This document shows, piece after piece, positions 43,422-62,420 of a stretch of DNA of 64,000 bases (the first letter of the stretch is position 1; every line of letters starts with the position of its first letter). Made by a program: the position numbers and the translations under genes. The DNA comes from Pseudomonadota bacterium (lineage in GTDB: Bacteria; Desulfobacterota; Desulfobacteria; Desulfobacterales; RPRI01). Location: assembly GCA_018901125.1 (NCBI GenBank), contig JAHIFE010000178.1, positions 4,989 to 68,988 on the forward strand. Direction: 5' to 3'. Below the pieces are notes generated by a model that did no database searches, was not told the DNA's origin, and saw nothing but the letters and a program-made list of their open reading frames with translations.

Positions 43422-43423
43422 TT

Positions 43424-43478
43424 AAAGCGAATAACGAATAGCGTATAGCGTACAACGATTTCCGCAATTCACTATCCG
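43424..43478. repeat. Degenerate 7-bp tandem array at a gene junction
   Basis: AAAGCGA ATAACGA ATAGCGT ATAGCGT ACAACGA, then TTTCCGC AATTCAC TATCCG. Confidence 0.7.
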
Positions 43479-43508
43479 GCTTATGATTTGATTAGTAGCC
43501 AGGAGATT

Positions 43509-44705
43509 ATGAACAAAATAAACAGAAGACACTTTATATACAGTACTGCTTTAATTCTTTCGATGCCTGTTGCAGCTCATGCACTTTGGCCTTTAGGTGA
43601 AAAGAAAGCAAATGCTACAGAGTCGGATAATATAAGGGGTACTATATTTAAAGGGGATGCACCGGATAAGCCCGGGAAATGGTCACACGAAGCATTATTA
43701 TATAAAAAGCTTGATAACAATAAGGTGGCATGCGGTATATGTCCTCACAGATGTTTGCTGTCACCGGGAGACAGGAGCGTCTGCCGCTCAAAAGCAAATA
43801 TAGGCGGAATACTTTACAGCCTTTCATACGGAAATCCCTGTACGGTCAATGTTGACCCTGTTGAAAAAAAACCGCTCTTTCACTTTAAACCCCAAACAAA
43901 AGCTTTTTCGGTTGCAGCTGCCGGATGCAATTTCCGTTGTCTGAACTGCCAGAACTGGGAAATTTCACAGGCTAAACCGGGTGAAGTGCGCCACATTGAG
44001 CTTTTTCCCGAAGACGTTGTTAAGGCGGCTTTGAAATCCGGGTCAGAATTAATCGCATGCACATATTCCGAGCCTGTATCCTATATTGAATACATGATGG
44101 ATATAGCACGTATCGCAAAAGAAAAAGGCCTTTCCAATCTTTGGATATCGAATGGTTATATAAACACAAAGCCGCTTCTTGAATTATGCAGATATATTGA
44201 CGGCGCTAATGTTAACCTGAAGTCTTTCAGTGATGAAATATACCAAAAATTAAACGGGGGAAGACTCGAACCTGTTTTAAACACTTTTAAAACCATGAAT
44301 GAGAAAGGCATTCACTTTGAAATGACAAACCTTGTCGTCCCCGGCTATGTCGATGATGTTGAAATGGTTAAACGAATGTGCGGGTGGATTCTGACAAATC
44401 TTGGTCCGGATCATCCTCTTCATTTTCTGCGCTTTTTCCCGCAGTACAAACTTGACAGGCTTGCACCTACCCCCATATCCACTCTTGAAAATTTCAGAAA
44501 CATTGCAATGAATGAAGGCATTCATTACGCATATGTCGGCAATGTCCCGAATCACGAAGGAATGAACACTTACTGTCACAACTGCAAAAAACTGCTTATT
44601 AAACGAAAAGGCTATTTCATACCCGAATACAATCTTTCAGAAAACAGATGCAAATTCTGTAATACTGTTATACCCGGCGTTTGGGGAAAAAATAATAACG
44701 AATAG
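43509..44705 (+). CDS. amrS: AmmeMemoRadiSam radical SAM enzyme with an N-terminal twin-arginine-like signal
   Basis: CNFRCLNC (CxxxCxxC), CGICPHRC, VDPVEKKPLFHF, TYSEP, YVGNV..YCHNC; N-terminus MNKINRRHFIYSTALILSMPVAAHA. Start at 43509 after AGGAG. Confidence 0.93.
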   Translation: MNKINRRHFIYSTALILSMPVAAHALWPLGEKKANATESDNIRGTIFKGDAPDKPGKWSHEALLYKKLDNNKVACGICPHRCLLSPGDRSVCRSKANIGGILYSLSYGNPCTVNVDPVEKKPLFHFKPQTKAFSVAAAGCNFRCLNCQNWEISQAKPGEVRHIELFPEDVVKAALKSGSELIACTYSEPVSYIEYMMDIARIAKEKGLSNLWISNGYINTKPLLELCRYIDGANVNLKSFSDEIYQKLNGGRLEPVLNTFKTMNEKGIHFEMTNLVVPGYVDDVEMVKRMCGWILTNLGPDHPLHFLRFFPQYKLDRLAPTPISTLENFRNIAMNEGIHYAYVGNVPNHEGMNTYCHNCKKLLIKRKGYFIPEYNLSENRCKFCNTVIPGVWGKNNNE

Positions 44706-44743
44706 AGAAATCCGCCATTCACTGTTCGTTGTTTGCTATTCGA
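44695..44743. repeat. Heptamer hairpin supplying the stop codon of the radical SAM gene
   Basis: ATAACGA ATAGAGA AATCCGC CATTCAC TGTTCGT TGTTTGC TATTCGA; forward units followed by reverse-complement units. Confidence 0.7.
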
Positions 44744-44771
44744 ATCTGAATTAAGATGTGGGGGAAAATCC

Positions 44772-47227
44772 ATGAAAACATCTACTCGTCTCTTAATTAT
44801 AAATATCATTGTGTTTATTCTGGCTTTTGCGGTGATAGTTGTGGTTGTTAATCAAAACATGCGCCGACAGGCTCTGTATGAGGCTGAATCCAGGATCAAA
44901 ACAATGGCAGATCAATACTATGCCATTCATACCTATTTTTCGGAAAAATTAAAGCCCGCAATTTTTAAATTAACAGAACCTGTTCGCTCAAAAGAATATT
45001 TTGATCCGGTATGGATGTCTTCAACTCATGCCATTCGCGAGATGGCCAAAGACATAAGAAAACACGGAAATGTAGAATACTATGTAAAAGATGCCGCCAT
45101 CAATGCACGAAATCCAGAAAACGAAGCTACTCCTTTCGAAAAGAAATTTATTATTGAATTAAATATAAATTCAAAACTGCAGGAAAGAAGCAGCATGCAG
45201 GTTTTGGACGGCAAAATTTATTTTATTTATCTTCGCAGGGGCGAACAAATGGAAGAGTCGTGTCTTCGATGCCATAGTATTCCGCAGAATGCGCCAAAAG
45301 ATCTGGTTCAACTTTACGGCTCTTTGCGCGGCTTTAACCGGAAGAAAGGTGATCTGGTATCGCAATTTCTATCCGGGTTCCTTTATCGGCCGCATATGGC
45401 GATGCAAACTATTTTTCATTAAAACTTTCCATATTTTTACTTTTAATAATTATTACGGTTTTTCTTGTTTCTTTATGGTTTAACAGGCGCCATATATATA
45501 AGCCACTTTATGCAATTCATAATAAGGCGCTTGAAATCTCAAACTCACCCGATAAATTGGGGGAAGAAATTCCGCTTCCTTCAGGCAAAGAATTTAAAGA
45601 ACTTGCCATAGCATATAATAAAGTATCGGTCAGGTTGCGATATCATATAGATAACATGGAAAAGCTTATACAGGTACGCACCATAGAGCTTGCAAATGCT
45701 AATGAACAGTTGAAGAATGAAATTAATGAACGAATGCAAATAGATGAGACTTTGCAAAAGACCAATGAATTTCTCGACACGTTAATTAAATCTTCACCTC
45801 TTGCGATATTTTCACTTGATATCAAAGGAACTGTATTATCTTGGAACGAGGCTGCCAAAAAGATATTCGGCTGGCAGAAAAGCGAGGTAATAGGGCGTAT
45901 TGTGCCAAATTTTCATGGTACCGATGGATATGGCCAGCGGGCTTTGCAGGGTGAAGTTTTTACTAATATTGAACTCACTCCACTGAAAAAAGATGGGTTG
46001 CCGACTGATATCAGTTTTTCTACAGCTCCTTTGCGCGATAAAAACGGTAATATTACAGGAATTATCGCTATAATTGCCGATATAACCGAACGCAAAAAAA
46101 TGGAAGAAGAGCTTTTAAAAGCACAGCAGCTTGAATCGATAGGCGTTCTTGCAGGAGTTATGGCACATAATTTTAATAATGTCTTAACTTCCGTTTCAGG
46201 AAATATTCAATTGGCAAAGATGAAGATACAACCGGAAACAAAAGCATTTGATCTGTTAGGCTCGGCGGAAATATCTCTGATCAAGGCTCAGGAACTTTCA
46301 GTCCAATTACTTACCTTTGCCAAAGGCGGCGCTCCGCAAAAGAAAACTATTTCAATTTCAAGTCTTATCAAGGATTCCTGCACTATGGCACAGCAGGGAT
46401 CTAAATCAGAATGTGAATTTTCGATTGAAAAAGATCTGTGGCAGGTAGAAGCAGATAGCGGACAATTAAGCCTTGTATTCAGCAATATTGTTATAAATGC
46501 AAGTCAGGCCATGCCCCAGGGAGGTATTATCAGGGTTGCAGCCAATAATTTAATAGTAGATGCCGGTCAGGATCTGCAATTGGAGCCTGGAAAATATGTT
46601 CATATTTCTGTAGAAGATCAGGGTCCAGGCATACCCGAAAATAATCTTTCGAAGATATTCGATCCTTATTTTACAACAAAAGTTGAGAGTAGCGGCCTTG
46701 GACTTGCAGCGGCTTATTCCATCATAAAAAATCACAACGGGCATATTTATGCTAAATCCCTTCCTGGAGAAGGAACAGTATTTCACATATATTTACCGGC
46801 TTTCGGTGATTTTATTGCGGCAGAAGAAGAAGCAGAACTCTTGACCGGATATGGGAATATTCTTGTAATGGATGATGACAAGATGCTTAAAATAATGGTA
46901 GAAGAGATGCTAAATGTTCTTGGCTATGAGTCCGAGTTTGCAAATGATGGTGATGAAGCTGTTAAAATGTATAAAAAAGCGCTGGAATCAGGCAAACCTT
47001 ACGATGCCGTAATGCTGGATCTTACCATTCCGGGCGGTATGGGAGGAAAGGAAGCTGTGAAAATATTGCTGGAAACAGATCCTAACTTAAAAGCTATTGT
47101 TTTCAGCGGATACTCGGATGATCCGGTTATGTCGAACCATCGCAAATACGGTTTTAAGGGCATGCTGTCAAAACCGTTCAATTTGGAGTCTTTAGGCAAA
47201 GCGCTGCATGATGTTCTTAAAAACTGA
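44772..47227 (+). pseudogene. Frameshifted DUF3365 (CxxCH heme)-HAMP-PAS hybrid histidine kinase/REC
   Basis: ORF 44772-45422 (TM, DUF3365 with CLRCH) continues in the -1 frame from about 45362 as AISIRVPLSAAY..TM2..HAMP, open and in frame with the TTG at 45557. The kinase (AHNFNN) and REC are intact downstream. Confidence 0.8.
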
Positions 47228-47242
47228 TCAAGGGGTTTAATA

Positions 47243-48799
47243 ATGATCTATAATGATTTTTTGATAAATGTCGCTATTACTATTTCACTTAGCGTTCTGT
47301 ATGGAATTTTTATTCGCAAAATAGACGATACTACTACAACCGGTAAAATTGCAGCAGGAATTATTTTCGGTATTGCTGCGATTATAGTAATGTTTAACCC
47401 TTTTCACTATATGCCCGGAATTATTTTTGACAGTCGTTCCATTGTAATAAGCGCAGCCGGTCTTTTTGGAGGTTTTATTCCGGCAATAATCGCCTCAAGT
47501 ATTGCAGCAGCTTACCGTTTGCACATCGGAGGAGCAGGAACCTTGATGGGGGTTTCTGTTATATTCGTATCAGCAGCTATAGGACTTGGATATAAAAGTC
47601 TTGCAGTAAAGAAACCTGAATTTTTACGCCCGGTGTATTTTTATGTTTTTGGAGTTACAGTACATTTATTCATGCTTTTATTGATGCTTACACTACCCGG
47701 AGCATTGGTGTTTGATGTAATAAAAACTGTTGCCGTTCCCGTAATGATAATATTTCCGTTAACAACATTGCTGCTATGCATTTTATTAAGGGATCATAAA
47801 ATTCAAACAGAAACCAGTAAGGCTCTGGTTAAGAGCGAAGAACAATATCGATTAATAGTTGAGACAGCAAACGAGGGAATCTGGAGGATGGACCGCAATT
47901 CCAAAACAGTATATATGAATAGAATGGTTTCTGCCATGCTTGGATATACTGAAGCTGAAATTGCAGGCAGACCGGTTTCCGATTTCATGTTCGAAGAAGA
48001 TCTGGTTGATCATAAATCAAGGATGAACTGCCGTTACACTGGCAAAGCAGATATATACGAAAGAAAACTTAAAAGAAAAGACGGCTCCATTCTCTGGGCC
48101 GGTATTTCGGCTATCCCTCTTTTCGATGAAAATAAACGGTTTGACGGGTCTTTTGGTATGCTTACAGATATAACCTCCCGCAAAGAAGCAGAAGAAGAGT
48201 TAAAGCAGACCACGGAAAAACTGAGAACAGGGCTTATCGGAACAATTAATGTTATATCGCTTACCATAGAAACCCGTGATCCATATACTTCCGGCCACCA
48301 GAAAAGAGTTTCAAAGCTTGCGCGATTAATAGCACAGGAAATTGGATTACCAAATGATACTGTGGAAAACATAAGAATGGCAGGTGTTGTTCATGATATT
48401 GGAAAGATGTCCGTTCCTTCTGAAATATTAAGCAAACCAAGCAGGCTGACGGATATAGAAATGCGCCTTATCAAAACTCATCCGGCGTCAGGGTATGAAA
48501 TTCTAAAGGATGCCTGCCTGCCTTATCCGATAGCAGAGATAGTTCTTCAGCACCACGAAAGAATAGACGGATCAGGATACCCGAACTGTTTAGAAGGAGA
48601 GCAGATTCTTCTTGAAGCAAAAATAATCAGCGTTGCCGATGTAGTCGAAGCTATATCGTCTCATCGTCCTTACAGGCCTGCCTTTGGTGTGGATATAGCT
48701 CTTGAGGAGATCAGGAAGAACAGGGGCATACTCTATGATGCCAAAGTTGTGGATGCATGCCTGCGGCTGTTTAATGAGAAAGGATTTAAGTTTGAATAA
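47243..48799 (+). CDS. 5TM-5TMR_LYT - PAS - HD-GYP c-di-GMP phosphodiesterase
   Basis: FDSRSIVISAAGLFGG membrane sensor, PAS, RDPYTSGHQKRV, HDIGK, HHERIDGSGYP. Confidence 0.92.
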   Translation: MIYNDFLINVAITISLSVLYGIFIRKIDDTTTTGKIAAGIIFGIAAIIVMFNPFHYMPGIIFDSRSIVISAAGLFGGFIPAIIASSIAAAYRLHIGGAGTLMGVSVIFVSAAIGLGYKSLAVKKPEFLRPVYFYVFGVTVHLFMLLLMLTLPGALVFDVIKTVAVPVMIIFPLTTLLLCILLRDHKIQTETSKALVKSEEQYRLIVETANEGIWRMDRNSKTVYMNRMVSAMLGYTEAEIAGRPVSDFMFEEDLVDHKSRMNCRYTGKADIYERKLKRKDGSILWAGISAIPLFDENKRFDGSFGMLTDITSRKEAEEELKQTTEKLRTGLIGTINVISLTIETRDPYTSGHQKRVSKLARLIAQEIGLPNDTVENIRMAGVVHDIGKMSVPSEILSKPSRLTDIEMRLIKTHPASGYEILKDACLPYPIAEIVLQHHERIDGSGYPNCLEGEQILLEAKIISVADVVEAISSHRPYRPAFGVDIALEEIRKNRGILYDAKVVDACLRLFNEKGFKFE

Positions 48800-48842
48800 G
48801 CGGTAATAACTATATCCAAATTATATCCCGGAGATTCTTCAA

Positions 48843-50111
48843 ATGGATTTTATGGATAATATAAATCCAGGCACAAAAAATATTAACCGTTATTTTATAA
48901 TTCTTATCGTGATCTGGACATTAGGAGTCTTTGCAACTCTTGGATGGGATATATATCAGCTTAAACATTCAACTTTCAGGCTTGCCAATATAAGCGCTGA
49001 AATATCCTACAATAAAGATGCTATTTACCGTCATTGGGCGGCAATGCACGGAGGAGTTTATGTGCCGGTTACCGATACTGATCCTCCCAACCCCTACCTT
49101 AATGTTCCCCACAGGGATATTACTACCACAGAAGGACAGAAGTTCACTCTGATAAACCCCGCTCACATGACACGCCAGGTAAATGAAATAAGTGAGGATG
49201 CGGTTGGATTCAAAGGCCATATCACCAGCCTTAATTGTATCCGGCCTGAAAATTATCCGGACACCTGGGAAACTGAGTCTCTTAAATCCTTTGAGCGCGG
49301 TGTAAAAGAAGCAGCATCTTTTGAAATAAAATCAGGCAAAGAATACTTTCGTTTTATGCGGCCCTTTATTACTGATAAAAGTTGCCTTAAATGTCATGCC
49401 GCGCAGGGATATAAGGAAGGGGATATTCGCGGAGGAATCAGTATATCAATACCCATGGAACCCTTAAGGTCTGTAGAACGATCACAAATTAATGATGTGC
49501 TGATCGCTTACGGCTTTTTGTGGCTGCTTGGAATAGGAGGAATTGCAGTCAGCACGCGGCGTTTGTGGAAACAGCTGGTTTATCGTGAGAAAATAGAGAA
49601 AGAAGTTCTCACCCTGTCTATAACCGACCAGCTGACAGGCCTTTACAACAGAAGAGGATTTTTATCTCTTGCCGACAGACAGCTTAAATTGGCAGACAGG
49701 AATAAAAACGGAATAATGCTCTTTTTCGCAGATCTGGATGGTTTAAAGGATATTAACGACAGATTTGGGCATAAGGAAGGAGATAAGGCGCTTATTGAAG
49801 CAGCAACCGTCTTCAAGGAAACTTTCAGAACATCTGATATAATCGCCCGTCTGGGAGGAGATGAATTTGCTGCTCTTGCAATAGATATACAAGAGAAAAA
49901 TTCCGAAATCTTTACTTCCCGATTACAGTACCTGACAGAAATGCAAAATAAACAGGAAAACCGGACATACAAACTGTCAATCAGTATCGGCGGTTCTTTC
50001 CAGGATCCTGAAAATCCCAGGTCAATTGACGAACTTATATCACAGGCTGATAAATTGATGTATGAGCAGAAAAAACAAAAGAAATCATATTCTAATTCGA
50101 GCAACGAATAG
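48843..50111 (+). CDS. DUF3365 heme-c sensor diguanylate cyclase
   Basis: TM-periplasmic domain with WAAMHGGVYV, LINPAHMTR and CLKCH-TM; DQLTGLYNRR, RTSDIIARLGGDEF. Confidence 0.92.
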   Translation: MDFMDNINPGTKNINRYFIILIVIWTLGVFATLGWDIYQLKHSTFRLANISAEISYNKDAIYRHWAAMHGGVYVPVTDTDPPNPYLNVPHRDITTTEGQKFTLINPAHMTRQVNEISEDAVGFKGHITSLNCIRPENYPDTWETESLKSFERGVKEAASFEIKSGKEYFRFMRPFITDKSCLKCHAAQGYKEGDIRGGISISIPMEPLRSVERSQINDVLIAYGFLWLLGIGGIAVSTRRLWKQLVYREKIEKEVLTLSITDQLTGLYNRRGFLSLADRQLKLADRNKNGIMLFFADLDGLKDINDRFGHKEGDKALIEAATVFKETFRTSDIIARLGGDEFAALAIDIQEKNSEIFTSRLQYLTEMQNKQENRTYKLSISIGGSFQDPENPRSIDELISQADKLMYEQKKQKKSYSNSSNE

Positions 50112-50142
50112 CGAATGTCGATATTTCCTGCTCGCTATTCAA
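50094..50142. repeat. Heptamer hairpin supplying the stop codon of the GGDEF gene
   Basis: AATTCGA GCAACGA ATAGCGA ATGTCGA ... TGCTCGC TATTCAA; perfect 9-bp stem GAATAGCGA/TCGCTATTC (50106-50114 / 50132-50140). Confidence 0.72.
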
Positions 50143-50165
50143 AACATGGTTTATGACCTCTCAAA

Positions 50166-51329
50166 CTAAACAGATTTCTGAATAAGCACACGAACAGGTT
50201 CTATTATGCCTTCTGATTTTGCAAAATTATGAAGGCGGCTAAGTAAAACAGAACTGACTTCGTGCCCTCTTGATATAAGCAAACGGCCGGTTTTTGACCG
50301 GACATCTTCATCAAGAATCATACCTGTTTTAAGATCGGCAAATAACACATCCGTTTTTTTACATTTTCCACTGCCGCCGACAAGTGATTCCATGGCAGAC
50401 AGCACATCCGGATCATATTTCCCAGGCAGATCTTTAAGCTGCTTTACAATTTTGATATTTTCGATTCCTTTTGCTTCCATAATATCAAAATCAATAGCCG
50501 CTTTTAAGATTCTTGCACCGATAGGAATATTTTCGCCCTGCAGATTGTCTTTAGGATTACCCGATCCGTCGAAGAATTTCTCCTGATAACGTATAATTTC
50601 AGCTAGTTTATCCAAGCGTGGAATTTTGGAAAGCAGATCGGATGCTATCATAGGATGCATATCAAACAACTGACTTTCCTCTCCGGAAAGTTCCTCTCCT
50701 CTGTAAAGTTTCTTCAATGCTTCTTCCGGCAGGATAACACATCCAATCTGCGAAAGCATGGCAGCCATTTCAAGCCACCATATATTGGAAAGATCGAGCG
50801 TTTCAGCAATCTGCTTTACATGTTGTTTAATTCTGGAAGACCTTCCGAAAGCTACAGGATTTACCAGAGATAGAATTTCATTCAGCACCGAGACGGTACC
50901 TTTAAGGGTTTTTTCAAGAAGTTCCTTTTCGGCAATTACCAATCTATGCTGTTTGATACCGAGATTAATAACATTTTTCAGTGTATCCGGAGAGCAGGGC
51001 TTGGTCAGAAACTGGAATATGTTTCCTTCATTAACTGCACGAATGGTTTTATTGAGATCGGCATTGCCTGTCAACATTATACGCACCGTATCAGGTACAA
51101 TCTCCTTGACTCGTGCAAGAAATTCAATCCCGTTCATATCGGGCATTTGGAGATCGGAAATAATTACTGAATATGGTCTGTTATTTCTGATTGCTGCGAG
51201 TCCCTCATGAGGACCCTGTGCGGTAGCCAGATTAAATTCCTTTCTTAACTGCCGCCTTATCGCATCCAGGAAATTGGTATCATCATCTACAACAAGAATT
51301 GCTTCATCCATCGCTTTTACTTTCATCAT
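50166..51329 (-). CDS. Response regulator with a degenerate HD-GYP-like output domain
   Basis: REC (VVDDD, ISDLQMP, LTKP); SQIGC replaces HDIGK and YQEKFFDGSGNP replaces HHER.DGSGYP. Confidence 0.85.
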   Translation of the reverse strand: MMKVKAMDEAILVVDDDTNFLDAIRRQLRKEFNLATAQGPHEGLAAIRNNRPYSVIISDLQMPDMNGIEFLARVKEIVPDTVRIMLTGNADLNKTIRAVNEGNIFQFLTKPCSPDTLKNVINLGIKQHRLVIAEKELLEKTLKGTVSVLNEILSLVNPVAFGRSSRIKQHVKQIAETLDLSNIWWLEMAAMLSQIGCVILPEEALKKLYRGEELSGEESQLFDMHPMIASDLLSKIPRLDKLAEIIRYQEKFFDGSGNPKDNLQGENIPIGARILKAAIDFDIMEAKGIENIKIVKQLKDLPGKYDPDVLSAMESLVGGSGKCKKTDVLFADLKTGMILDEDVRSKTGRLLISRGHEVSSVLLSRLHNFAKSEGIIEPVRVLIQKSV

Positions 51330-52551: not shown

Positions 52552-54658
52552 TTTTCAACGGAAGACATATTATAAAGGTGGTTCCGCTTCCTTCTTCAGA
52601 TTCAAAAGTTAAATTACCGCCATGTTTTTGAACTATAATCGAATGCGAAATTGCCAAGCCCTGTCCCGTCCCCTTTCCAACTTCCTTTGTTGTGAAAAAC
52701 GGATCGAAAATTCTGGACCGGATATTTTCAGGTATCCCGCTTCCAGTATCTGTAATACTTATTTCAGCACAATCGTCTTTACTGCGGGTAGACAAAGTAA
52801 TAAGGCCTTTTTTGTCCGGATGTTTCCTGACAACATCAGAAATAGCGTGAGCAGCATTGACTATTATATTTAAAAAAACCTGGTTCAGAGCACCGGCATG
52901 ACCGAAGACCGCAGGAAGTGATAAATCAAAGTCGGTTTTAATTTCCGCTACATATTTCCATTCATTACGGGATACAGTTATGGTGTTTTCAAGGGCATGG
53001 TTTATATCAACTCCTGACTTTTCTTCTTCACCCGGGTGAGAAAAATCCTTTATGGAACGAACAATATTTGCAACATGAGCCACACCTTCCCGGCTTTGTT
53101 GTATTGCCAGCGGAATTTCCTTGATTAGATAATTCAGATCCATTTCTTCCATAGCCTTTTTAGCATCATCGACAATATTATCTGCCTTGTCTCCGTTTTT
53201 AGCGGCATCAATAAATTTGCAGAAATACCCGAGCAACCTTTCTATATCATTAAAGGAATCCCGCAGAAAAAGTATATTATCCCCGACATACTGAACAGGC
53301 GTATTAATCTCGTGGGCAATACCGGCCGCCAGTTGCCCGATTGATTCAAGTTTGCAGGCCTGGGCAAACTGGATCTCCATCTGTTTTCTGTTAGTAATAT
53401 CAGCTCCCATTAATAAAAATCCAGTCTGGTCCGTTCCTTCAACAGACATCGGATTTAATATTATTCCCAAAAACCCTGATTTCCCGTTTTGCTGGGTAAA
53501 AACAACATCATCAACACGGACAGGTTTACGGCTTTCAAGACATTGGCATATTCCTGCTTTTATCTTCTCCCATTCCCACAAACAGCCGCATTCGGCAAAG
53601 TGAAGGCCTTTGACTTTTTCAGATTCGATCCCAAACAGATCCTCCGCTACTCTATTCCAGGTTGTGATTAACCCGTCTGAATCTACTCCTATCAAAAAAG
53701 AAGAAATTGAACGAATTAAGGCTTCATTTTCAATGCCTAATTTAAGCAGGGACTCCTGTATATTTTTAAGGTCGGTTATATCGTTTACTACTCCTATAAG
53801 GCCCGCTACTTTACCGGCTGAATCAGTATAGGTAGCTTTATTGCAAATTATATGATGCCTGCTTCCGTCGCTAAATAGTATTTCGTCTTCTATTTTATGA
53901 CGTCCCGGATTGCTGAATACCGTCAAATCATGTTTATAGTGTTTTTCCGCCTCATCTTTCGGCACTAAGTCGAAGATAGACTTTCCTATAATATTTTCTC
54001 TCTTTTCCCCTATATATTCTTCGAATGCACAGTTGCAACCTATGCATAACCCATCCATGTCTTCGTAAAATATAGGGTTGGGAATGACATCAATGAGTTT
54101 TTGTAAAAAATCAAGCTGTTCTTCCAAGTCATTTTTTGTGTTTTCAATCCGCGATGTCCTTTCGGCAACAAGTTGTTCGAGTTGCTCCCGGTAATGATGC
54201 AACCCGCTTTCAGCTTCTTTACGACCGGTAATCTCTTCGTATGTAATTATGGTTCCAATTATGTTTCCGTCCGGATCTCGCATAGGAATCTTGTTTATAT
54301 CCAACCAGATTTGTTTGCCGTCAGCACGAATTTGTGAGCCTGTAATATTGTATTGTGGAGTATTTATATCCGTTATATTTAAGTCGCTTGCCATATAAAA
54401 ACTTACATTGTCTTTATTACGGGCTAAATCCGGTTTCCCCACAATATTAACTTTATCAATGCCTGCTTCTCGCGCAAACTTTTCATTACACCCTAAATAT
54501 ATACCGTTTAGATCTTTCCAGAAAATACGCTGAGGCATGCTATCAATAACTAATTGAAGCGATTTTATTGTCTTTTCATGATGTTCGATATTTATTTTAA
54601 ACAAATCAAGATCGCAGGTCATTTTCTCTAATTGTTCATAAATTAATTTATTGTCCAT
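52541..54658 (-). CDS. Cytoplasmic multi-PAS sensor histidine kinase (NtrB-like)
   Basis: Three PAS domains, [35 protein letters not shown]. Start placed at MDNK (54658). Confidence 0.92.
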
Positions 54659-55149
54659 AAAGCAAGCCCTCGTAGCACTAAATTTGTTTGGTCGGCATAT
54701 ATCAAAATACCAGACTGCTGGTAAATCCAAGCCTGTTAAAAAGCTTTATATGAACCGGCAACAATAATTTATACAACTTTCATGCCAAGAGCATTGCAAC
54801 AATTACTTCAATATTTACATATAGTTTTGACAGGATATCGAAATGCAACCGTCAAATAAATGGCACTATGCCCAGCTTGGGTTTATTAAACATAACTTTG
54901 CATCCATTCATAAACAGATAGCGGTTTGAAATATCAAAACATATTTCATTGTATATTTGGCATGTTAAGGAAAGGAACGGCCGTTATTTTTGCGGTTTGC
55001 ATACGAACTTACCCACCGATGTTGCTTCAGGCACATATTATGCAAATCTCAGGATATTATATTAATTGTTTGACTTAACTATCATAAAATGTTAAAAAAA
55101 ACTTATCAGTTCTATAAACACTACTATAAGCATCAACGGATACTATGCC

Positions 55150-56595
55150 GTGAAATCACCTTGGTTTAACCTTTGGTTTTCGGAGGGCATTATAAAACCG
55201 CAAATGCAATCGGGAAATACTATCCAACCGCTGAAATCTTCACCTTTCCGCAGGTTCGCAAAAGCGCTTGCAGAAAAATTCAAGATACAAATCTTCGCAG
55301 AAGCCGTTCAGGACGGCTTCGATGGTGCGGTATTATATGCCGATATTATTCAGAAATCATCCCAGCCATTGTTGGTTGCTAATCCGGACGCAACAATAAT
55401 ATCCTGCAATGAAGCTTATCTGAAAATCATGGGCTATACAAAAGAAGAATTTGAGAAAATCGAATGTGCTATAGACTTCACTCCGCCGGAGTGGCAGGAA
55501 ATCACCAGGGATAGCATGGAAGAGTTGCACCGTACAGGCCGTCCGGTAAGGTATGAAAAAGAATATATAAGAAAAGACTCAAAGCGTTTTCCGGTCGAAA
55601 TATTTCTTCATTTTATGAAAGATGAAAATGGCCTGCTGTATTGTTATTACGCTTTTACTACAGATATTACACAACGAAAGCTTGCGGAAGCGGCAATGAT
55701 ACAGGCAAAACTGCGTTATCGCAATTTGTTTGAAGAAGCTCCGGTTATGTATGTTATCACCCGCAACCAGGGTGGCGTGCCTGTTATTGTTGACTGCAAT
55801 GCGCTTTTTTTGAGCACTATGGGATACACAATTTCCGAAGTAATGGAGCATCCTCTGGGCGATTTTTACACGCCGGAATCTTGCGCCGAAATGCTGGAAG
55901 GCGGCGGTTATCAGCGTGCATTGTCGAACCGGTTTACAAGTGAAGAACGCAAGCTTTTAACACGGGATGGCAAAATTAAAGAAACATTGATGAGAGCCGT
56001 TCCGGAAAGTGATGCTGATGGCAACGTAACGGGAACGCGGGCAATGTTTATCGACGTAACTGCGCAGAAGCAGGCAGAAAGACAATTGCTGGCTTTGTCG
56101 TTGCGGCAGGAGGCTATCCTGTCGGCTATTCCCGATATTGTAATCGAAGTGGATGTTGATAAAGTATATACTTGGGCAAACGAAGCCGCTAAGGAATTTT
56201 TCGGCCCAGACGTTATAGGAAAAGAAGCTTCTTTCTATTATGCAGATGAGCAGGACACTTACAATCTGGTGAAACCGCTTCTAAGTGGTATCGAGGATTC
56301 AATTTATCTTGAAAGCCTCCAAATAAGAAAAGATGGCGAGAAACGTCTGCTGGCCTGGTGGTGCCGGGCGTTAAAGGATGAACATGGAAATGTGAGGGGC
56401 GCGCTTTCCACAGCACGCGACATCACCGAGCAAAGGCAGGCAAAAATACAGCTCGGCAGTAAAATCGAGGAGCTGCAGCGCTGGAATAAAGCAGTCATGG
56501 GCCGCGAAATGCGCGTTATTGAACTAAAGCGCGAGGTAAACGAACTTTTGGTAAAATCAGGGCAGCCAAAGCGTTATAATGATAATGAGCAGTGA
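55150..56595 (+). CDS. Three-PAS-domain protein without a catalytic output domain
   Basis: Three PAS/PAC repeats ending in DITQRK / DVTAQK / DITEQR, then the coiled tail ELQRWNKAVMGREMRVIELKREVNELL. Start uncertain. Confidence 0.8.
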   Translation: MKSPWFNLWFSEGIIKPQMQSGNTIQPLKSSPFRRFAKALAEKFKIQIFAEAVQDGFDGAVLYADIIQKSSQPLLVANPDATIISCNEAYLKIMGYTKEEFEKIECAIDFTPPEWQEITRDSMEELHRTGRPVRYEKEYIRKDSKRFPVEIFLHFMKDENGLLYCYYAFTTDITQRKLAEAAMIQAKLRYRNLFEEAPVMYVITRNQGGVPVIVDCNALFLSTMGYTISEVMEHPLGDFYTPESCAEMLEGGGYQRALSNRFTSEERKLLTRDGKIKETLMRAVPESDADGNVTGTRAMFIDVTAQKQAERQLLALSLRQEAILSAIPDIVIEVDVDKVYTWANEAAKEFFGPDVIGKEASFYYADEQDTYNLVKPLLSGIEDSIYLESLQIRKDGEKRLLAWWCRALKDEHGNVRGALSTARDITEQRQAKIQLGSKIEELQRWNKAVMGREMRVIELKREVNELLVKSGQPKRYNDNEQ

Positions 56596-59500
56596 TGACA
56601 TGTACAATAAAACATCTACTGAAAATACTTCCAAACTTCAAAACCCATCCTCTTCCCGCTGGATTGCGATAGCTCCTTTTTTATTGCTGTTTATGCTCAT
56701 TATTATAGCTGCTACCGAATATTTATATATCAGGCAGCAATATCGGGCAGCCAAAAAAGCGGCGCAAACAGAAATTTCTTCTGTAGCCAATCTTAAAGCA
56801 GGCCAGATTGAAAACTGGTATAAAGATCGTATAAAAGATGCCGAGATTGTTTCGAATAATATAATACTTCAAATGAAAGTGCAGCTTTTATTTTCCAACC
56901 CCGACAACGCAGATCTTAAGAAAGAAATACTTCAATGGATGGTAACTCAGCAAAAATATTATGAATACAAGCTGATGGTGCTTTATGACTCTGAGGGCAG
57001 GTCGCTGCTGTCTGTTCCTGAAGGCCTGGCCGCTTTTGATATTTCGCACAACCAATATTTTCAGGCTGCTTTGCGATCAAAAACTATTTTGCCGATTGAT
57101 CTGCACAAGGATCATGATTCCTGGAAATATATTCATCTTAGTATATATATTCCGATCAGAAATAATATTACGATCAGAAATAAACAGGGCGCAAATGATT
57201 TGGCGAAAGGGGCCTGGATGATACAGATTGATCCCTATCAGCTTTTGTATCCTCTGGTTCAAACATGGCCATCAGCAAGACAAAGCGCTGAAACTCTTCT
57301 TGTGCGGCGCGAAGGCGATGATGTCCTGTTTTTAAATGAACTGCGACACCGCCAGAATACAGCACTTGAGTTGCGGTTACCAATTTACCCCGATCGGCGG
57401 CTTCCTGCAGCTATGGCTTTAACGGGCTATGAAGGTATTATTGAGGGTCTTGACTACCGGAATGAGCAGGTACTTGCCGATGTGAGAAAGATAAAAGGGA
57501 CAAACTGGTTTATGGTAGCAAAGATTGATCGCAAAGAAATTTACGCCGGTATGTACCAACAGATATTGCTAAACGGGATCGCGCTTCTTGCCCTGCTTTT
57601 ATCCGCATCACTTGCAATAAGACTGCTGACAAGACAACACGATAACCGGATGCTCAAAGAACAGCTTGCCGCAGAGCAGGAGCGAAACGCCGCCATAGAA
57701 GCTCTTGCAGAAAGCAGGCAAAAAACCGCATTTTTTGCAGATGTGATCGAAAAATCATCGCAGCCTTTTCTTGTTGGTTATCCGGACGGTCGAATCGGCA
57801 TGTTTAACGATGCTTTTACAAAATTGCTTGGTTACAGCAAAGAGGAGATTGAAAAAATAAACCAGGCTCATCATTTTGCTTCAATACGGTCTGCGGATGA
57901 AGTGTCTAAACTGCAGGAATTAAATCGCACAGGTCAACCTGTCCGGTATGAAAAAGAATACATTAGAAAAGACGGCATGTACGCCCCAATCGAACTGTTG
58001 GTGCATCTGGTAAGAAAGGAAAATGGCCAGCCGGACTACTATTATGCTTTTATAACCGATATCACAGAGCGCAAGCTTGCGGAAAAAGCCGTTCTGGAAA
58101 GCAAAGAACGCCTGCAACTGGCACTTACGGCGGCTAATCATGGAATGTATGATCTTGATATAGAAACCGGCGAGGCCAAAACCAATCCTGAATATGCAAT
58201 GATTCTTGGCTATGATCCGGCCACCTTTGTGGAAACAAACGACAAATGGATCGAGCGTCTCCATCCGGATGACCGCGAACGCGTTTCCAAAACATACAGG
58301 GCATACATCGAGGGCAAACTTCCAACCTATCAGGTAGAATTTCGGCAACGAACAAAATCCGGCGATTGGAAATGGATTCTTTCTTTAGGAAAGATTCTTG
58401 AATATAGCGTTGAAGGCAAGCCGCTTCGTATGCTGGGGACGCATACCGACATCACCGAACGAAAACAGGCGGAAGAAAAAATCAGTAACAGCGAAACTCT
58501 TCTTAAACAAACCCAGAGATTAAGCCATGTTGGAGGTTGGGAGTATGATGTGGAAAGCAGGAGCATGTTATGGAGTGATGAAGTCTATAATATCCACGGC
58601 GTATCAAAAGACTATGATCCAAGCAATCCGGACTGGCATATAAACTTTTTCACTCCTGAAAACCGGGAAAAAATAAACAAGGCATTTATGCAGGCCCTCG
58701 AATACGGCGAGCCCTATGACCTTGTTTTGCAGTCAATAAAGGCAGATGGAACGCTGATATGGGTGCGGACGAGCGGACAGGCCGAACGCAAAGAAGGCAA
58801 GATAACCCGTGTGTTCGGCAATATAATGGATATCACGGAACGCATGCAGGCAGAGGAGCAGATGCTTGCCGCTAACGAAGAAATACGGATGCTGCTAAAA
58901 GATGCCGAGCAATCGCGCCTGGCTCTATTAAGCGTTGTTGAGGACCAGAAGGAGGCACAGAGGCAAATCCAGAAATTAAACGCCGAACTGGAGCAGCGCG
59001 TGCAGGAACGTACAGCCAGGCTCGAAACGGTAAATAAGGAACTTGAGGCATTCAGCTATTCCGTTTCTCATGATTTAAGGTCTCCGCTGCAGCACATAAC
59101 CGGTTTTGCAGAACTGCTGAACAAACGAGCGTACCAATCCCTTGATGAAAAGAGCAGACACTATATAAAAATAATAAAGGATTCTACTGGCCGGATGGGA
59201 GCGCTGATTGACGATCTTTTGTCATTTTCGCGAATGGGCCGTGCCGATATGATGAGAAAGAATGTAAACCTTGACAATATAGTAAAGGCAGTATTGGACG
59301 ATTTAAAGACAGAAACAAAAGAAAGAAATATCGAATGGAAAATCAATCCGCTTCCGGAAGTTACCGGAGATCCAGCCATGCTGAAACTTGTTTATGTCAA
59401 CCTTATATCCAATGCAGTTAAGTTTACAAAAGAGTGCGAAAAGGCTGTTATCGAAATAGGAAGTACATTCCGGAATAAAGGTGAAATATTTTTCTATGTA

Positions 59501-59791
59501 AAGGACAATGGAGCAGGTTTTGATATGAAATACGTTGATAAACTCTTTGGCCTTTTCCAGCGCCTTCACCGCTCCGAAGATTTTGACGGCACCGGCCTTG
59601 GTCTGGCCAATGTCCGCAGAATTATATACCGCCACGGAGGAAAAACCTGGGCAGAAGGAGAGGTGGACAAAGGAGCTACGATTTATTTCAGCTTGCCTGG
59701 GGAACAGGGATCAGGGATCGGGGATCGGGGATCGGGGATCGGGGGACAGGGAACAGGGGATCAGGATGTCGGTATCTTGAGGGAAGAGTAG
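56579..59791 (+). CDS. Membrane Cache-PAS-PAS-PAS sensor histidine kinase (phytochrome/CphA-type H-box) with a repeat-derived C-terminal tail
   Basis: Two TM, three PAS, FSYSVSHDLRSPL, NLISNAVKF, DNGAGFD, GTGLGL; tail GEQGSGIGDRGSGIGGQGTGDQ encoded by a 7-bp repeat. Confidence 0.93.
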   Translation: MIMSSDDMYNKTSTENTSKLQNPSSSRWIAIAPFLLLFMLIIIAATEYLYIRQQYRAAKKAAQTEISSVANLKAGQIENWYKDRIKDAEIVSNNIILQMKVQLLFSNPDNADLKKEILQWMVTQQKYYEYKLMVLYDSEGRSLLSVPEGLAAFDISHNQYFQAALRSKTILPIDLHKDHDSWKYIHLSIYIPIRNNITIRNKQGANDLAKGAWMIQIDPYQLLYPLVQTWPSARQSAETLLVRREGDDVLFLNELRHRQNTALELRLPIYPDRRLPAAMALTGYEGIIEGLDYRNEQVLADVRKIKGTNWFMVAKIDRKEIYAGMYQQILLNGIALLALLLSASLAIRLLTRQHDNRMLKEQLAAEQERNAAIEALAESRQKTAFFADVIEKSSQPFLVGYPDGRIGMFNDAFTKLLGYSKEEIEKINQAHHFASIRSADEVSKLQELNRTGQPVRYEKEYIRKDGMYAPIELLVHLVRKENGQPDYYYAFITDITERKLAEKAVLESKERLQLALTAANHGMYDLDIETGEAKTNPEYAMILGYDPATFVETNDKWIERLHPDDRERVSKTYRAYIEGKLPTYQVEFRQRTKSGDWKWILSLGKILEYSVEGKPLRMLGTHTDITERKQAEEKISNSETLLKQTQRLSHVGGWEYDVESRSMLWSDEVYNIHGVSKDYDPSNPDWHINFFTPENREKINKAFMQALEYGEPYDLVLQSIKADGTLIWVRTSGQAERKEGKITRVFGNIMDITERMQAEEQMLAANEEIRMLLKDAEQSRLALLSVVEDQKEAQRQIQKLNAELEQRVQERTARLETVNKELEAFSYSVSHDLRSPLQHITGFAELLNKRAYQSLDEKSRHYIKIIKDSTGRMGALIDDLLSFSRMGRADMMRKNVNLDNIVKAVLDDLKTETKERNIEWKINPLPEVTGDPAMLKLVYVNLISNAVKFTKECEKAVIEIGSTFRNKGEIFFYVKDNGAGFDMKYVDKLFGLFQRLHRSEDFDGTGLGLANVRRIIYRHGGKTWAEGEVDKGATIYFSLPGEQGSGIGDRGSGIGGQGTGDQDVGILREE
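59701..59764 (+). repeat. 7-bp tandem array GGA(T/A)C(G/A)G, about 9 units
   Basis: GGAACAG GGATCAG GGATCGG x4 GGGACAG GGAACAG GGGATCAG. Confidence 0.92.
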
Positions 59792-59797
59792 TAATTT

Positions 59798-59890
59798 ATG
59801 CATATTAATAGTTATCAGGTTATTGCGGCGTGGCAGAAATCAATAAGAAAGAATGTTATAAAATGTTTTCCCTGCCCCCCGTTCTCTTGA
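59798..59890 (+). pseudogene. Internally deleted four-helix-bundle gene (30-aa remnant)
   Basis: MHINSYQVIAAWQK matches the start (MHIKNYQDLEVWQK) and SIRKNV matches the end (LQKSIKKNI) of the intact gene at 60402-60767. Confidence 0.8.
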
Positions 59891-59895
59891 TCCCT
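59868..59895 (-). repeat. Inverted heptamer arm closing the remnant cassette
   Basis: TTCCCTGCCCCCCGTTC matches the reverse complement of 59737-59753 at 15/17 positions. Confidence 0.75.
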
Positions 59896-59910
59896 ATTTA
59901 AGGAAAATCA

Positions 59911-60354
59911 ATGAATATTTCATTAAATAAAATTTTGTTGGTAGAAGACAATATAAATGATGTGGAACTGGCCATGGAAGCTTTTTCAGAAAACAACATT
60001 GCAAACACGGTTGATGTAGTCCGTGATGGGGAAGAAGCTCTAGAATATCTTAAATACAAAGGTAAATTTTCATCACGATCTTCAGGCAATCCCGTGGTTA
60101 TTTTTTTAGATATCAATCTTCCCAAAATAAACGGGATTGAAGTGCTTAAAGCTATCAGAACTGATCACAAGCTGAAATTAATACCCGTGGTTATCTTTAC
60201 ATCCTCCCGCGAGGAAAAAGATCTTTTTGCAAGCTATAGTCTCGGTGTAAATGCTTATGTTGTAAAACCCATAGATTTCAATGAATTTGTAATAGCAGTC
60301 AGGTCGCTTGGATTATTCTGGGCAATCATCAATGAGCCTCCGCCGGAATTGTGA
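59911..60354 (+). CDS. Single-domain response regulator (Rcp1-type)
   Basis: ILLVEDN..D, FLDINLPKINGIEVL, IPVVIFTSS, YVVKP, FWAIINEPP. Confidence 0.93.
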   Translation: MNISLNKILLVEDNINDVELAMEAFSENNIANTVDVVRDGEEALEYLKYKGKFSSRSSGNPVVIFLDINLPKINGIEVLKAIRTDHKLKLIPVVIFTSSREEKDLFASYSLGVNAYVVKPIDFNEFVIAVRSLGLFWAIINEPPPEL

Positions 60355-60361
60355 GAAGAAA

Positions 60362-60391
60362 ATCGGGTGTCAGGGTCCAGGGGGCAGATAG
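60362..60391 (+). repeat. Upstream heptamer arm of the intact four-helix-bundle cassette
   Basis: CGGGTGT CAGGGTC CAGGGGG CAGATAG directly after the REC stop codon and before SD GGAG. Confidence 0.65.
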
Positions 60392-60401
60392 GAGTGTAAA
60401 T

Positions 60402-60767
60402 ATGCATATCAAAAATTATCAGGATCTTGAAGTGTGGCAGAAAGCTATGGATCTGGTAATTATGTGCTATAAGATAAGTGGTACATTTCCCAAGAATGAA
60501 GTATATGGCCTATCAAGCCAGTTACAGCGTGCTGCCGTATCGATACCTGCAAATATTGCTGAAGGCAGGGAAAGGCGCTACAGTAAAGAGTTCCTTCAAT
60601 ATTTATCAATCGCCTATGGCTCTTTGGCCGAAGTGGAAACGCACATTCATATAGCCAAACGGTTAGGCTATATCAACGAAAACCAATTCAACGAAACGCT
60701 GGGAAAAACATCTGAGATAGGGAGAATGTTAAATGGCCTGCAGAAGTCAATTAAAAAAAATATTTAA
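60402..60767 (+). CDS. Four-helix-bundle protein (23S rRNA intervening-sequence protein / bAvd-like family)
   Basis: YQDLEVWQKAMDL, FPKNEVYGLSSQLQRAAVSIPANIAEG, FLQYLSIAYGSLAEVETH, LGYI, MLNGL; 121 aa from ATG 60402. Confidence 0.95.
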   Translation: MHIKNYQDLEVWQKAMDLVIMCYKISGTFPKNEVYGLSSQLQRAAVSIPANIAEGRERRYSKEFLQYLSIAYGSLAEVETHIHIAKRLGYINENQFNETLGKTSEIGRMLNGLQKSIKKNI

Positions 60768-60778
60768 CAAGCGTTTTG

Positions 60779-60813
60779 CCCATGACGCCCGATCCCTGTT
60801 CCCTGGCAACTGA
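60779..60813 (-). repeat. Downstream inverted heptamer arm of the intact cassette
   Basis: CCCATGA CGCCCGA TCCCTGT TCCCTGG CAACTGA; TGACGCCCGAT pairs with ATCGGGTGTCA (60362-60372) with one G-U. Confidence 0.72.
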
Positions 60814-60817
60814 CTAT

Positions 60818-62194
60818 ATGGAACAAAACCTTAATATACTAAACCTTGAAGACAGTCCTAATGATTCTGAGCTGATAAAGGAAATTCTTTTTGATGCAGG
60901 AATTGAATGCGATATTATTCGTGTGGAAAATGAAAAAGACTATCTTTGGGCAATCGAAAATCATAATATAGATATTATACTTGCAGATTACACGCTTCCT
61001 TTATTTGACGGCCTGTCTGCGCTGAAAATTGCGCTGAAAAAATGTCCTGATGTGCCTTTTGTTTTTGTTACCGGTACGCTGGGCGAGGAGATTGCGGTTG
61101 AATCTTTAAAAAGCGGCGCAACAGATTATGTCCTTAAAGACGGGCTTCTGCGGCTTGTCCCGGCAGTTCAAAAGGCTTTAAGGGAAGTAGAATTTAAAAT
61201 AAAGCGAAAGCAAAGTGAAAATGCCTTGCGCGAATCGGAGGAAAAATACCGGGAGCTGGTAGAAAGCATCAGCAGTATTCTTTATACGGTAGATAACAAA
61301 GGAATTGTTACATATATCAGTCCATCGGTGCAGGCATTGATAGGATATAGTTCATCTGAAATTATCGGGCGTTCTTTATTTGTACTTATCTATCCGGAAG
61401 ATATTTCTTATATTGAGAAACAGTTTAAAAAAAGGCTATCAAACAGCCTTGAACCCAGCGAATACAGGATCGTTAAAAAATCAGGAGAAACAATATGGGT
61501 GACTTCTTCAAGCCGCGAGATAATCAGAGAAAAAAAGCTTGTCGGCTTACGCGGCCTGATTGTTAATATAGATGAGGATAAAAAATTTAAAGAAAAACTG
61601 AATGAAAGCCTCGATAGACTCCAAAATGCCAACAGAGGCATTATACAGGCCATGGCATTGACGATAGAAACACGCGACCCTTACACAGCAGGCCATCAGA
61701 GGCGTGTGGCCTGTCTTGCCCGGGCAATTGCCACAGAAATGAATTTGTCTGAACAGCAGATAGAGGGACTCAATATGGCAGGATCAATACACGATCTTGG
61801 CAAGCTGTCGGTTCCTGCCGATATTTTAAGCAAACCATCGAGATTAAGCGAAATTGAATACGAGCTTATAAAGATTCATCCTGAAGCAGGTTATAATATC
61901 TTAAAAGATATAGAATTTCCATGGCCTGTTGCACAAATCATATTACAGCACCACGAAAGGATGGATGGCTCAGGATATCCCAAAGGTTTAATGGGAGAAG
62001 ATATTATCATGGAATCCCGGATATTGAGTGTAGCCGATGTTGTAGAAGCCATATCGTCCCACCGTCCTTATCGTTCTGCTCAGGGAGTTGACAAAGCTCT
62101 GGAGGAAGTTGCCGACAAAAAAGGCATCCTCTATGATCCGGTGGTGGTTGATGCCTGTCTGAGAGTTTTTAAGGAAAAAGGATTTAAGTTCTGA
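60818..62194 (+). CDS. REC-PAS-HD-GYP c-di-GMP phosphodiesterase
   Basis: ILNLEDS, ILADY; PAS; RDPYTAGHQRRV, HDLGK, HHERMDGSGYP. The true start is MEQN (60818); the longer track start runs through the repeat arm. Confidence 0.93.
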   Translation: MEQNLNILNLEDSPNDSELIKEILFDAGIECDIIRVENEKDYLWAIENHNIDIILADYTLPLFDGLSALKIALKKCPDVPFVFVTGTLGEEIAVESLKSGATDYVLKDGLLRLVPAVQKALREVEFKIKRKQSENALRESEEKYRELVESISSILYTVDNKGIVTYISPSVQALIGYSSSEIIGRSLFVLIYPEDISYIEKQFKKRLSNSLEPSEYRIVKKSGETIWVTSSSREIIREKKLVGLRGLIVNIDEDKKFKEKLNESLDRLQNANRGIIQAMALTIETRDPYTAGHQRRVACLARAIATEMNLSEQQIEGLNMAGSIHDLGKLSVPADILSKPSRLSEIEYELIKIHPEAGYNILKDIEFPWPVAQIILQHHERMDGSGYPKGLMGEDIIMESRILSVADVVEAISSHRPYRSAQGVDKALEEVADKKGILYDPVVVDACLRVFKEKGFKF

Positions 62195-62359
62195 CGTCTT
62201 TGTACAATTTTCTCTGCTTCGCTGCGCTTCATTGCTCAAGCTTTGTGCACCTTTCATATGAAGCCTTTATAGAAGACACCAAAATATATTGAAGTTAGCA
62301 TCATGTCCAGATCAAGTCGCAAGTAACGTTTTTATACAAGTACATCAGGATCTATAAAT

Positions 62360-62402
62360 TGAATAGTAAGCAACATATCGATATTCGTTGTTCACTGTTC
62401 GA
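62360..62402. repeat. Heptamer hairpin at a gene junction
   Basis: GAATAGTAAGCAAC (62361-62374) pairs with GTTGTTCACTGTTC (62387-62400) with G-U pairs and one mismatch; same unit family as 44695-44743. Confidence 0.62.
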
Positions 62403-62420
62403 TCAGCAGGAGATTGTGCG

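Follow-up and report, generated by a model that had tools for sequence, protein, structure and literature searches.

Four short arrays of tandem heptamers, designated here E1-E4 in order of position, lie at gene junctions in a 64,000-nucleotide stretch of DNA (the window; C1:4989-68988 in contig coordinates) from a Desulfonema-like bacterium, whose genome comprises 4.45 Mb in 241 contigs. The best public match of this organism, judged by its radical-SAM protein, is a metagenome-assembled genome of Desulfonema limicola with 89% amino-acid identity. The four sites are copies of one dispersed non-coding repeat family common to the genus, called here the CGAATAG family. The explanation that we favour, with moderate confidence, is that of a genus-wide, gene-less hairpin repeat that spread into intergenic spacers, that has its arms in common with cassettes encoding four-helix-bundle proteins of family PF05635, and that provides neighbouring genes with stop codons through the sequence of its own units.

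The CGAATAG family and its copies in the window

A copy of the family is a hairpin of 45-70 nt with arms composed of in-phase 7-nt units, each consisting of CG and 5 further nucleotides. In the window arrays, units of the types CGAATAG, CGAATAA and CGTATAG are followed by complementary CTATTCG-type units. An alignment of 24 copies (A1) gave the full consensus CGAATAnCGAACAACGnACATCGATTTTCGCTATTCGCTATTCG. Divided into units it reads CGAATAG-CGAATAT-CGAACAA-CGTACAT-CGATTTC-CGCTATT-CGCTATT, a continuous array with CG every 7 bases. Its 5-nt spacers are of the AATAG type on one side and of the CTATT type on the other side of a conserved turn of 12 nt, TACATCGATTTC. A hidden Markov model trained on clear copies detected 56 loci in the whole genome at E <= 0.1, E1-E4 included, and a fifth copy is located just beyond the end of the window (C1:69279-69338). 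The four window elements were also matched by R1, a sequence-only covariance model of the family for which E4 was left out of the training set, while window positions 1-43000 hold no further R1 match below E 0.3:

E1, 43422..43489, + strand; R1 match at 43428-43486, E 2.8e-15
E2, 44686..44743, - strand (best family alignment); R1 E 7.4e-12
E3, 50097..50145, + strand; R1 E 7.2e-9
E4, 62355..62403, - strand; sequence TTGAATAGTAAGCAACATATCGATATTCGTTGTTCACTGTTCGATC; R1 E 7.3e-7

E1 is located between the TGA of the upstream gene (43419-43421) and the Shine-Dalgarno sequence (43502) and ATG (43509) of a radical-SAM gene. In 7-base phase it reads AGCGAAT AACGAAT AGCGTAT AGCGTAC AACGATT TCCGCAA TTCACTA; the first five units constitute its forward part, followed by the turn, CGATTTCCGC, while the reverse arm (AATTCACTATCCGG) is weak. 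As read on the + strand, the forward arm of E2 is short (AATAACGAATAG) and its reverse arm long (ATTCACTGTTCGTTGTTTGCTATTCGAATC), with the turn AGAAATCCGCC between them; the element takes up the spacer as far as the Shine-Dalgarno sequence of the gene that follows. E3, which reads CGAGCAA CGAATAG CGAATGT CGATATT TCCTGCT CGCTATT in 7-base phase, lies between a GGDEF gene and an HD-GYP response-regulator gene in convergent arrangement, and right after E4 come the Shine-Dalgarno sequence (62407) and ATG (62421) of a REC-GAF-PAS-HD-GYP gene. At each of the four sites, ~12-20 nt lie between the arms. E1, E2 and E4 have one ATTCACT or GTTCACT unit apiece.

These data agree with the first-pass annotation, made from the DNA letters alone, which had reported period-7 arrays at the same four positions and had described the inverted arm as clear in three of them and as weak in the first. 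Folding gave -15.4 kcal/mol (z -3.1) for E2 on the + strand, -21.8 kcal/mol (z -4.1) for E3 on the - strand and -15.2 kcal/mol (z -3.7) for E4 on the + strand, while E1 folds weakly (z -0.5 on the + strand, -2.3 on the - strand). Two inverted arrays of one 7-nt unit family are thus present in E2-E4, the reverse arm of E1 being weak. The string TCCGC(A/C)ATTCACT, to which attention had been drawn as common to E1 and E2, is real as well, but it does not link these two elements in any special way, as it is the turn and first reverse unit of the family, with the consensus TTYCGCTATTCGCT.

Genome-wide, period-7 arrays are in strong excess, with 70 counted compared to 1-21 for the periods 4-12, and they split into the unit families GGGATCA, AAGGTTC, GTTTCCC, GTTTTGA, TTGAAAA and CGAATAG. 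Three in-phase units of the CGAATAG family occur 81 times in the genome vs 7 times in a reversed-sequence control. The family is strongly intergenic, with 53 of its 56 loci outside open reading frames (ORFs), whereas 16% would be expected there (binomial p = 2e-38). Junctions could be classified for 49 loci and are co-directional in 39 cases, convergent in 6 and divergent in 4; the co-directional share (~80%) compares with 77% of junctions genome-wide, i.e., the junction types occur at genome frequency. The distances to the flanking genes are symmetric (median 28 nt from the upstream stop codon, 24 nt to the downstream start codon), and the orientation is unbiased, 22 copies running along the flanking genes and 17 being opposed. 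An Rfam scan of window positions 40000-64000 gave no match at E <= 1.

In 13 of 53 loci, a flanking ORF has its stop codon inside the element; the units themselves are the source of about ten of these stop codons, and five proteins end with AAC GAA TAG. In the window this applies to the ORFs 43488..44705 (radical SAM) and 48843..50111 (Tll0287-GGDEF), which close with AAC GAA TAG inside E2 and E3, respectively:

Radical-SAM gene, 43509..44705, + strand; located between the forward-rich E1 and the reverse-rich E2, product assigned by Pfam
TAG stop codon of the radical-SAM gene, 44703..44705, + strand; part of AAC GAA TAG, from a forward unit of E2
TAG stop codon of the GGDEF gene, 50109..50111, + strand; from a forward unit of E3

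It had been noted before that two unrelated proteins both end in ...NE owing to a stop codon in the array, and the Pfam assignments (radical SAM vs Tll0287-GGDEF) bear this out. The radical-SAM protein ends in GKNNNE here vs GKNI(K/R)(M/A)(I/V) in relatives, and the GGDEF protein in KKSYSNSSNE vs KKASSS, KKTHPA and KTKRL in its orthologs. The copy after the REC-GAF-PAS-HD-GYP gene supplies the stop codon of that gene. As TAG or TAA is part of the forward units, and three units with a period of 7 nt place it in every frame, stop donation is automatic. Furthermore, the element is quasi-palindromic, so that an ORF entering from either side reaches forward-type units first and is closed within ~21 nt, which explains the shared ...NE ends. 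Stop donation is a property of the whole family and a consequence of its unit sequence. Neighbouring proteins have their C-termini rewritten by these repeat-supplied stop codons, and for annotation purposes the family accounts for recurrent ...NNE protein ends and for unusually long spacers inside operons.

Orthologous junctions and PF05635 cassettes in related genomes

Relatives were sampled with one genome per species, covering 16 same-genus genomes and 24 other families of the order. R1 matches were obtained in all 16 genomes of the genus, with 6-95 matches per genome (both strands counted) vs 100 in the genome studied here. The nearest relatives have 22 (G013, the closest), 6 (G016), 17 (G007) and 16 (G009) matches. 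In more distant congeners, the family is represented by a sub-variant that has CGTACAT units and differs in its turn. Outside the genus, any R1 match was found in 8 of the 24 sampled families and none in the other 16.

Presence and absence vary at the orthologous junctions of E1-E4 and of the next element downstream, all of them gene-less. For E1, a diverged ortholog exists in G013, and the element is absent in G016, G007 and G009. At the E2 junction a diverged reverse arm is found in G016 and nothing of the element in G007 and G009. E3 is absent 3' of the orthologous GGDEF gene in G013, G009 and G016, E4 is absent in G007 and G009, and so is the next element downstream. From this mixed pattern it follows that the copies are lineage-specific insertions of various ages, and the family has expanded in this lineage. 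A four-helix-bundle gene, which the first-pass annotation had suggested might lie at these junctions in relatives, was found at none of the four; the junctions are bare or hold a diverged gene-less element.

In G007 and G009, the spacer at the E4 junction has 22 nt vs 225 nt here, where it is made up of E4 and the following unrelated repeat:

Repeat-like insertion, 62195..62354, no strand assigned; rest of the 225-nt spacer before E4, outside the heptamer family

This ~160-nt repeat includes TTCGCTGCGCTTCATTGCTCAAGC and is not present in G007 or G009. A similar repeat is present at the radical-SAM junction in other relatives (L004, L007, L008).

The REC-GAF-PAS-HD-GYP gene downstream of E4 (window 62388-64301) is flanked on its other side by the copy at C1:69279-69338 (= 64291-64350 in window numbering). 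G007 and G009 possess the gene and no elements. In G013 (L160/L187) the gene is lacking, and a single element is found, the left edge of which is E4-like while its right flank is that of the downstream copy. The state in G013 is consistent with loss of the gene by recombination between the two flanking hairpins, which suggests that the repeats may mediate the loss of whole genes.

Genes do occur between arms of this type in other species of the genus. The 30 best PF05635 loci of the genus show arms of many unit families, and in three congeners, G012 (locus L117), G006 (L121) and G002 (L132), CGAATAT/CGAACAT-type arms surround the PF05635 gene. Among the 30 loci only these three have R1 matches on both flanks (E 1e-7 to 1e-4). 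The first-pass annotation had regarded the window elements as scars or minimal forms of a cassette consisting of a four-helix-bundle gene between such arms, and had made this idea depend on the existence of relatives with a gene in that position; these three are such relatives. The loaded form is not simply forward arm, gene and reverse arm. It has a complete forward-turn-reverse hairpin on each side of the gene, and the turns form direct repeats (CGAAGTTCGAT in L117, GAATATCGGAAAGCRAAGTACGA in L132). The proteins encoded at the three loci, which are three different genomic locations, share 83-87% identity among themselves, whereas no PF05635 protein of the genome studied here exceeds 45% identity to them, i.e., the cognate subfamily is absent from this genome.

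None of the 5-6 PF05635 genes of this genome has CGAATAG arms. The one in the window (cassette 60351-60813) lies between GGGATCA/TGATCCC arms. No gene and no gene remnant was found at the 56 loci, the longest of which measures 91 nt, and strict pairing of arrays revealed no forward-gene-reverse arrangement of the CGAATAG family in the genome. Mapping of the L117 and L132 flanks onto this genome gave no clean orthologous junction, the flanking signalling genes having many paralogues. Cassettes of other arm families, in contrast, display clean presence/absence differences compared to this genome (sites matching L130/131, L134, L139 and L123/129).

A position-weight-matrix scan for single arms identified E1 and E2 as the sole forward-then-reverse arm pair within 3 kb in the genome. 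For the forward arm of E1 and the reverse arm of E2, a duplex across 1.26 kb is predicted (-27.7 kcal/mol, z -4.9). This pairing could give the radical-SAM gene the geometry of a loaded cassette; it is, however, not specific, as forward and reverse arms of the family would pair in every combination. Since the synteny of the radical-SAM gene is kept in relatives, the gene is not cargo.

Several further observations were made on PF05635 cassettes and their arms. In at least four species (window 60355-60775; L120 in G010, L121 in G006 and L127 in G005), a PF05635 cassette separates an Rcp1-type REC gene from an HD-GYP gene. The arm families at this shared junction differ (GGGATCA, CTGATAA-like, CGAATAT and CGTGGAT), the proteins are non-orthologous (~45% identity), and the junction looks like an insertion hot spot. 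AGTGAAT/ATTCACT arrays, which equal AGCGAAT/ATTCGCT with one CpG-to-TpG change, flank PF05635 genes (L130 in G011, L131 in G010) and also stand alone 3' of the radical-SAM gene in G005, G006 and G010, where a start codon follows closely. At C33:12960-13085 this genome has a gene-less AAGGTTC hairpin where G012 (L137) has a PF05635 cassette with GGCTGAA arms.

Origin and possible function of the hairpins

In the explanation favoured here, copies would have been inserted into short intergenic spacers, in either orientation, after the split from the nearest relatives, and multiplication most likely took place in gene-less form, comparable to a miniature inverted-repeat transposable element (MITE) or a repetitive extragenic palindromic (REP) element. 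It is the mode of spread that we infer here; membership of the family, the intergenic bias, the states of the junctions, the loaded relatives and the stop-codon statistics are observations. The opposite course of events, in which each hairpin is the remainder of a cassette that lost its gene by recombination between the flanking hairpin copies, is doubtful. The loaded CGAAT-armed cassettes do have the structure hairpin-gene-hairpin with direct-repeat turns, and an internally deleted cassette of another arm family exists at C17:17640-17900, where a truncated PF05635 remnant (33 codons from the C-terminal part) lies between GGCACAA/TTGTGCC arms and the full gene is found in G009 (L114). A remnant of a gene, however, was seen in 0 of 56 loci, and the nearest relatives have bare, not loaded, junctions at E3, E4 and the next downstream element. 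To assume 56 complete and traceless losses of one type of cassette is unparsimonious, and together with the absence of the cognate gene from this genome and the bare junctions in relatives this favours gene-less spread. Hence, of the earlier proposal of scars or minimal forms of one cassette architecture, the shared arms with L117, L121 and L132 stand, while a scar is unlikely as the general origin. A selected RNA element, with the stems acting as putative RNase III sites or as 3'-end-protecting structures that split or stabilise polycistronic mRNAs, is rather unlikely. E2, E3 and E4 fold significantly better than shuffled sequence, the elements are placed precisely in the gaps between cistrons without covering the downstream Shine-Dalgarno sequence, the forward arm of E1 and the reverse arm of E2 might form a long-range helix of 16 bp around the radical-SAM cistron, and a stem with tandem heptamers in the Coxiella intervening sequence is known to be cut by RNase III (PMC4990558). 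On the other hand, there is neither an orientation bias nor a preference for a junction type, E1 barely folds, stems of 10-16 bp are short for RNase III, and Rfam contains no match to the window region scanned. RNAalifold found no consensus structure for the 24 copies of A1, as the pairing register differs from copy to copy, and the arms of a given copy pair no better with each other than those of chimeras (means of -14.5 vs -15.8 kcal/mol; 4932 of 5000 permutations equalled or surpassed the actual pairing). The ability to form a hairpin is a general trait of the family and not upheld copy by copy, and this result and the unbiased orientation argue against strong selection on RNA structure.

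The phased CG-N5 units could also be putative iteron-like sites for a DNA- or RNA-binding protein regulating the neighbouring genes, for example of the IHF/HU type, of the cold-shock type or a four-helix-bundle pentamer, which we consider very unlikely. The strict 7-nt phasing of CG is not interrupted at the turn, neither in the consensus nor in E1-E3. In Geobacter metallireducens, inverted arrays of heptamers and octamers that occur in pairs were proposed as sites of a global regulator (PMC2700814), and for CspB, binding of a single heptamer by each protein is cited in PMC4679880. The phasing is trivial, however, if an array was palindromised and its unit starts with the self-complementary CG; moreover, the genes next to the elements are of diverse kinds, close relatives lack the elements at orthologous junctions, so that no conserved regulon is apparent, and no candidate protein co-occurs with the family. 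That the hairpins are intrinsic (Rho-independent) terminators is extremely unlikely: although they lie just 3' of stop codons at E2 and E3, their stems are AT-rich and have no U-tract, a terminator scan calls none of the four elements, either orientation occurs, convergent junctions are not enriched, and 80% of the copies lie between co-directional genes with short spacers, which is the genome-wide frequency. Integron attC sites were rejected as well, because the copies are single and dispersed, not in cassette arrays, and have no R'/R'' core (GTTRRRY).

Several points weigh against gene-less spread as the explanation. No target-site duplication is visible at E4 or the next element in comparison with the bare sites of G007 and G009, the flanks of which are ~18% diverged. 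The family is not associated with a transposase or any other enzyme; the genome has 16 matches to Y1 transposases (PF01797), and no copy or arm of the family lies within 3 kb of these. Between such ends only PF05635 genes were found, and as PF05635 is not known as a transposase family, an autonomous partner as in MITEs is not apparent. The hairpins of the loaded cassettes form direct repeats, and precise loss of the gene by recombination would leave just such an 'empty' hairpin; individual copies may therefore be scars. The copy C10:50653 is kept almost base for base in G013 (~98% identity vs 95% for the flanks); some copies are thus old, and this conservation could reflect a function. Finally, the gene calls are crude, as they are based on a longest-ORF heuristic that covers 84% of the genome.

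By analogy with REP sequences and their REP-associated tyrosine transposases (RAYTs), the CG-phased heptamer hairpins and the PF05635 genes might together constitute one two-part mobile system, a speculative proposal to which we give a low probability. Each four-helix-bundle lineage would then recognise its own 7-nt word, gene-less hairpins would represent non-autonomous copies or docking sites, and pairs of hairpins around ordinary genes would be substrates for recombination or excision, by which cistrons of signalling operons are added or removed. The radical-SAM gene between E1 and E2 would fit such a system, as would the REC-GAF-PAS-HD-GYP gene between two copies, in place of which G013 has the single hybrid element.

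Comparison with known heptamer repeats and further repeat elements

Tandem heptamer repeats of filamentous bacteria have been catalogued since about 1990, and to our knowledge there is no agreed origin or function for them. The intervening sequences (IVSs) of 23S rRNA genes that carry a four-helix-bundle gene are, as far as we know, equally unexplained. The CGAATAG family is a well-delimited addition to this kind of element, which is already known but unexplained. It makes a clean case for study, since it is gene-less, high in copy number and largely confined to one genus, and since bare, filled and gene-carrying states are all seen among close relatives. It also shows that repeat arms are able to outnumber and outlive the gene that they accompany elsewhere.

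The IVS of the Coxiella 23S rRNA, which is cut by RNase III, has a 28-bp stem that contains tandem heptamers and encloses a PF05635 ORF (PMC4990558). In common with such ORF-bearing IVSs of Coxiella and Leptospira (S23p/PF05635), the CGAATAG family has inverted arms of 7-nt repeats and inserts into transcribed DNA, and in the congeners with L117, L121 and L132 the same protein family is encoded between such arms. In contrast to the IVSs, the CGAATAG elements are gene-less and located between protein-coding genes instead of in rRNA, and they form a family of ~56 copies with a conserved turn and much shorter, imperfect stems. Geobacter metallireducens possesses multicopy, gene-less, paired inverted heptamer/octamer arrays, described as 'global regulator binding sites' (PMC2700814). 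These are similarly intergenic sets of 4-5 tandem units of 7-8 nt, paired on opposite strands and without a gene; they differ in the unit sequences, whereas in the family described here the arms abut around a conserved 12-nt turn, and a link to PF05635 cassettes is seen in relatives.

In Beggiatoaceae and cyanobacteria, TAACTGA and other heptamers form direct repeats (PMC4679880). Like these short tandemly repeated repetitive (STRR) and TAACTGA sequences, the CGAATAG units are intergenic tandem heptamers in filamentous gliding bacteria, their forward units provide stop codons in all frames, and many unit families occur in one genome. The TAACTGA units, however, are repeated directly, lie immediately before start codons and are strongly biased towards the forward orientation, whereas the CGAATAG family has the structure of a forward/reverse hairpin, no orientation bias and symmetric distances to stop and start codons. 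With REP/REPIN sequences and their RAYT genes the family shares the dispersal of short imperfect palindromes in dozens of copies, nearly all intergenic and in either orientation, and a lineage-specific copy number. Unlike those, it flanks no Y1-transposase gene here, has no GTAG head, and has arms made of tandem heptamers. A literature search for heptamer repeats of Desulfonema found nothing, and the genome paper of D. ishimotonii is silent on them.

Heptamer arrays of several families also occur in concatenated form. In the type II secretion operon at C175:10600-12700 (L081; gspF-G-H-I-J-K) the spacers are full of such arrays, belonging to at least three families (AAGGTTC, TGAGTTG/GTAAGTT, CGAATAG, GGGATCA) that are not mutually complementary. 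A different, MITE-like element with the inverted ends GAGCCAGTTTCAAAACG … CGTTTTGAAAGTGGCTC is present at C175:27395-27590, C184:14889 and C234:3306. It adjoins CGAATAG arms at two loci, and it also fills a junction that holds a CGAATAG hairpin in G013.

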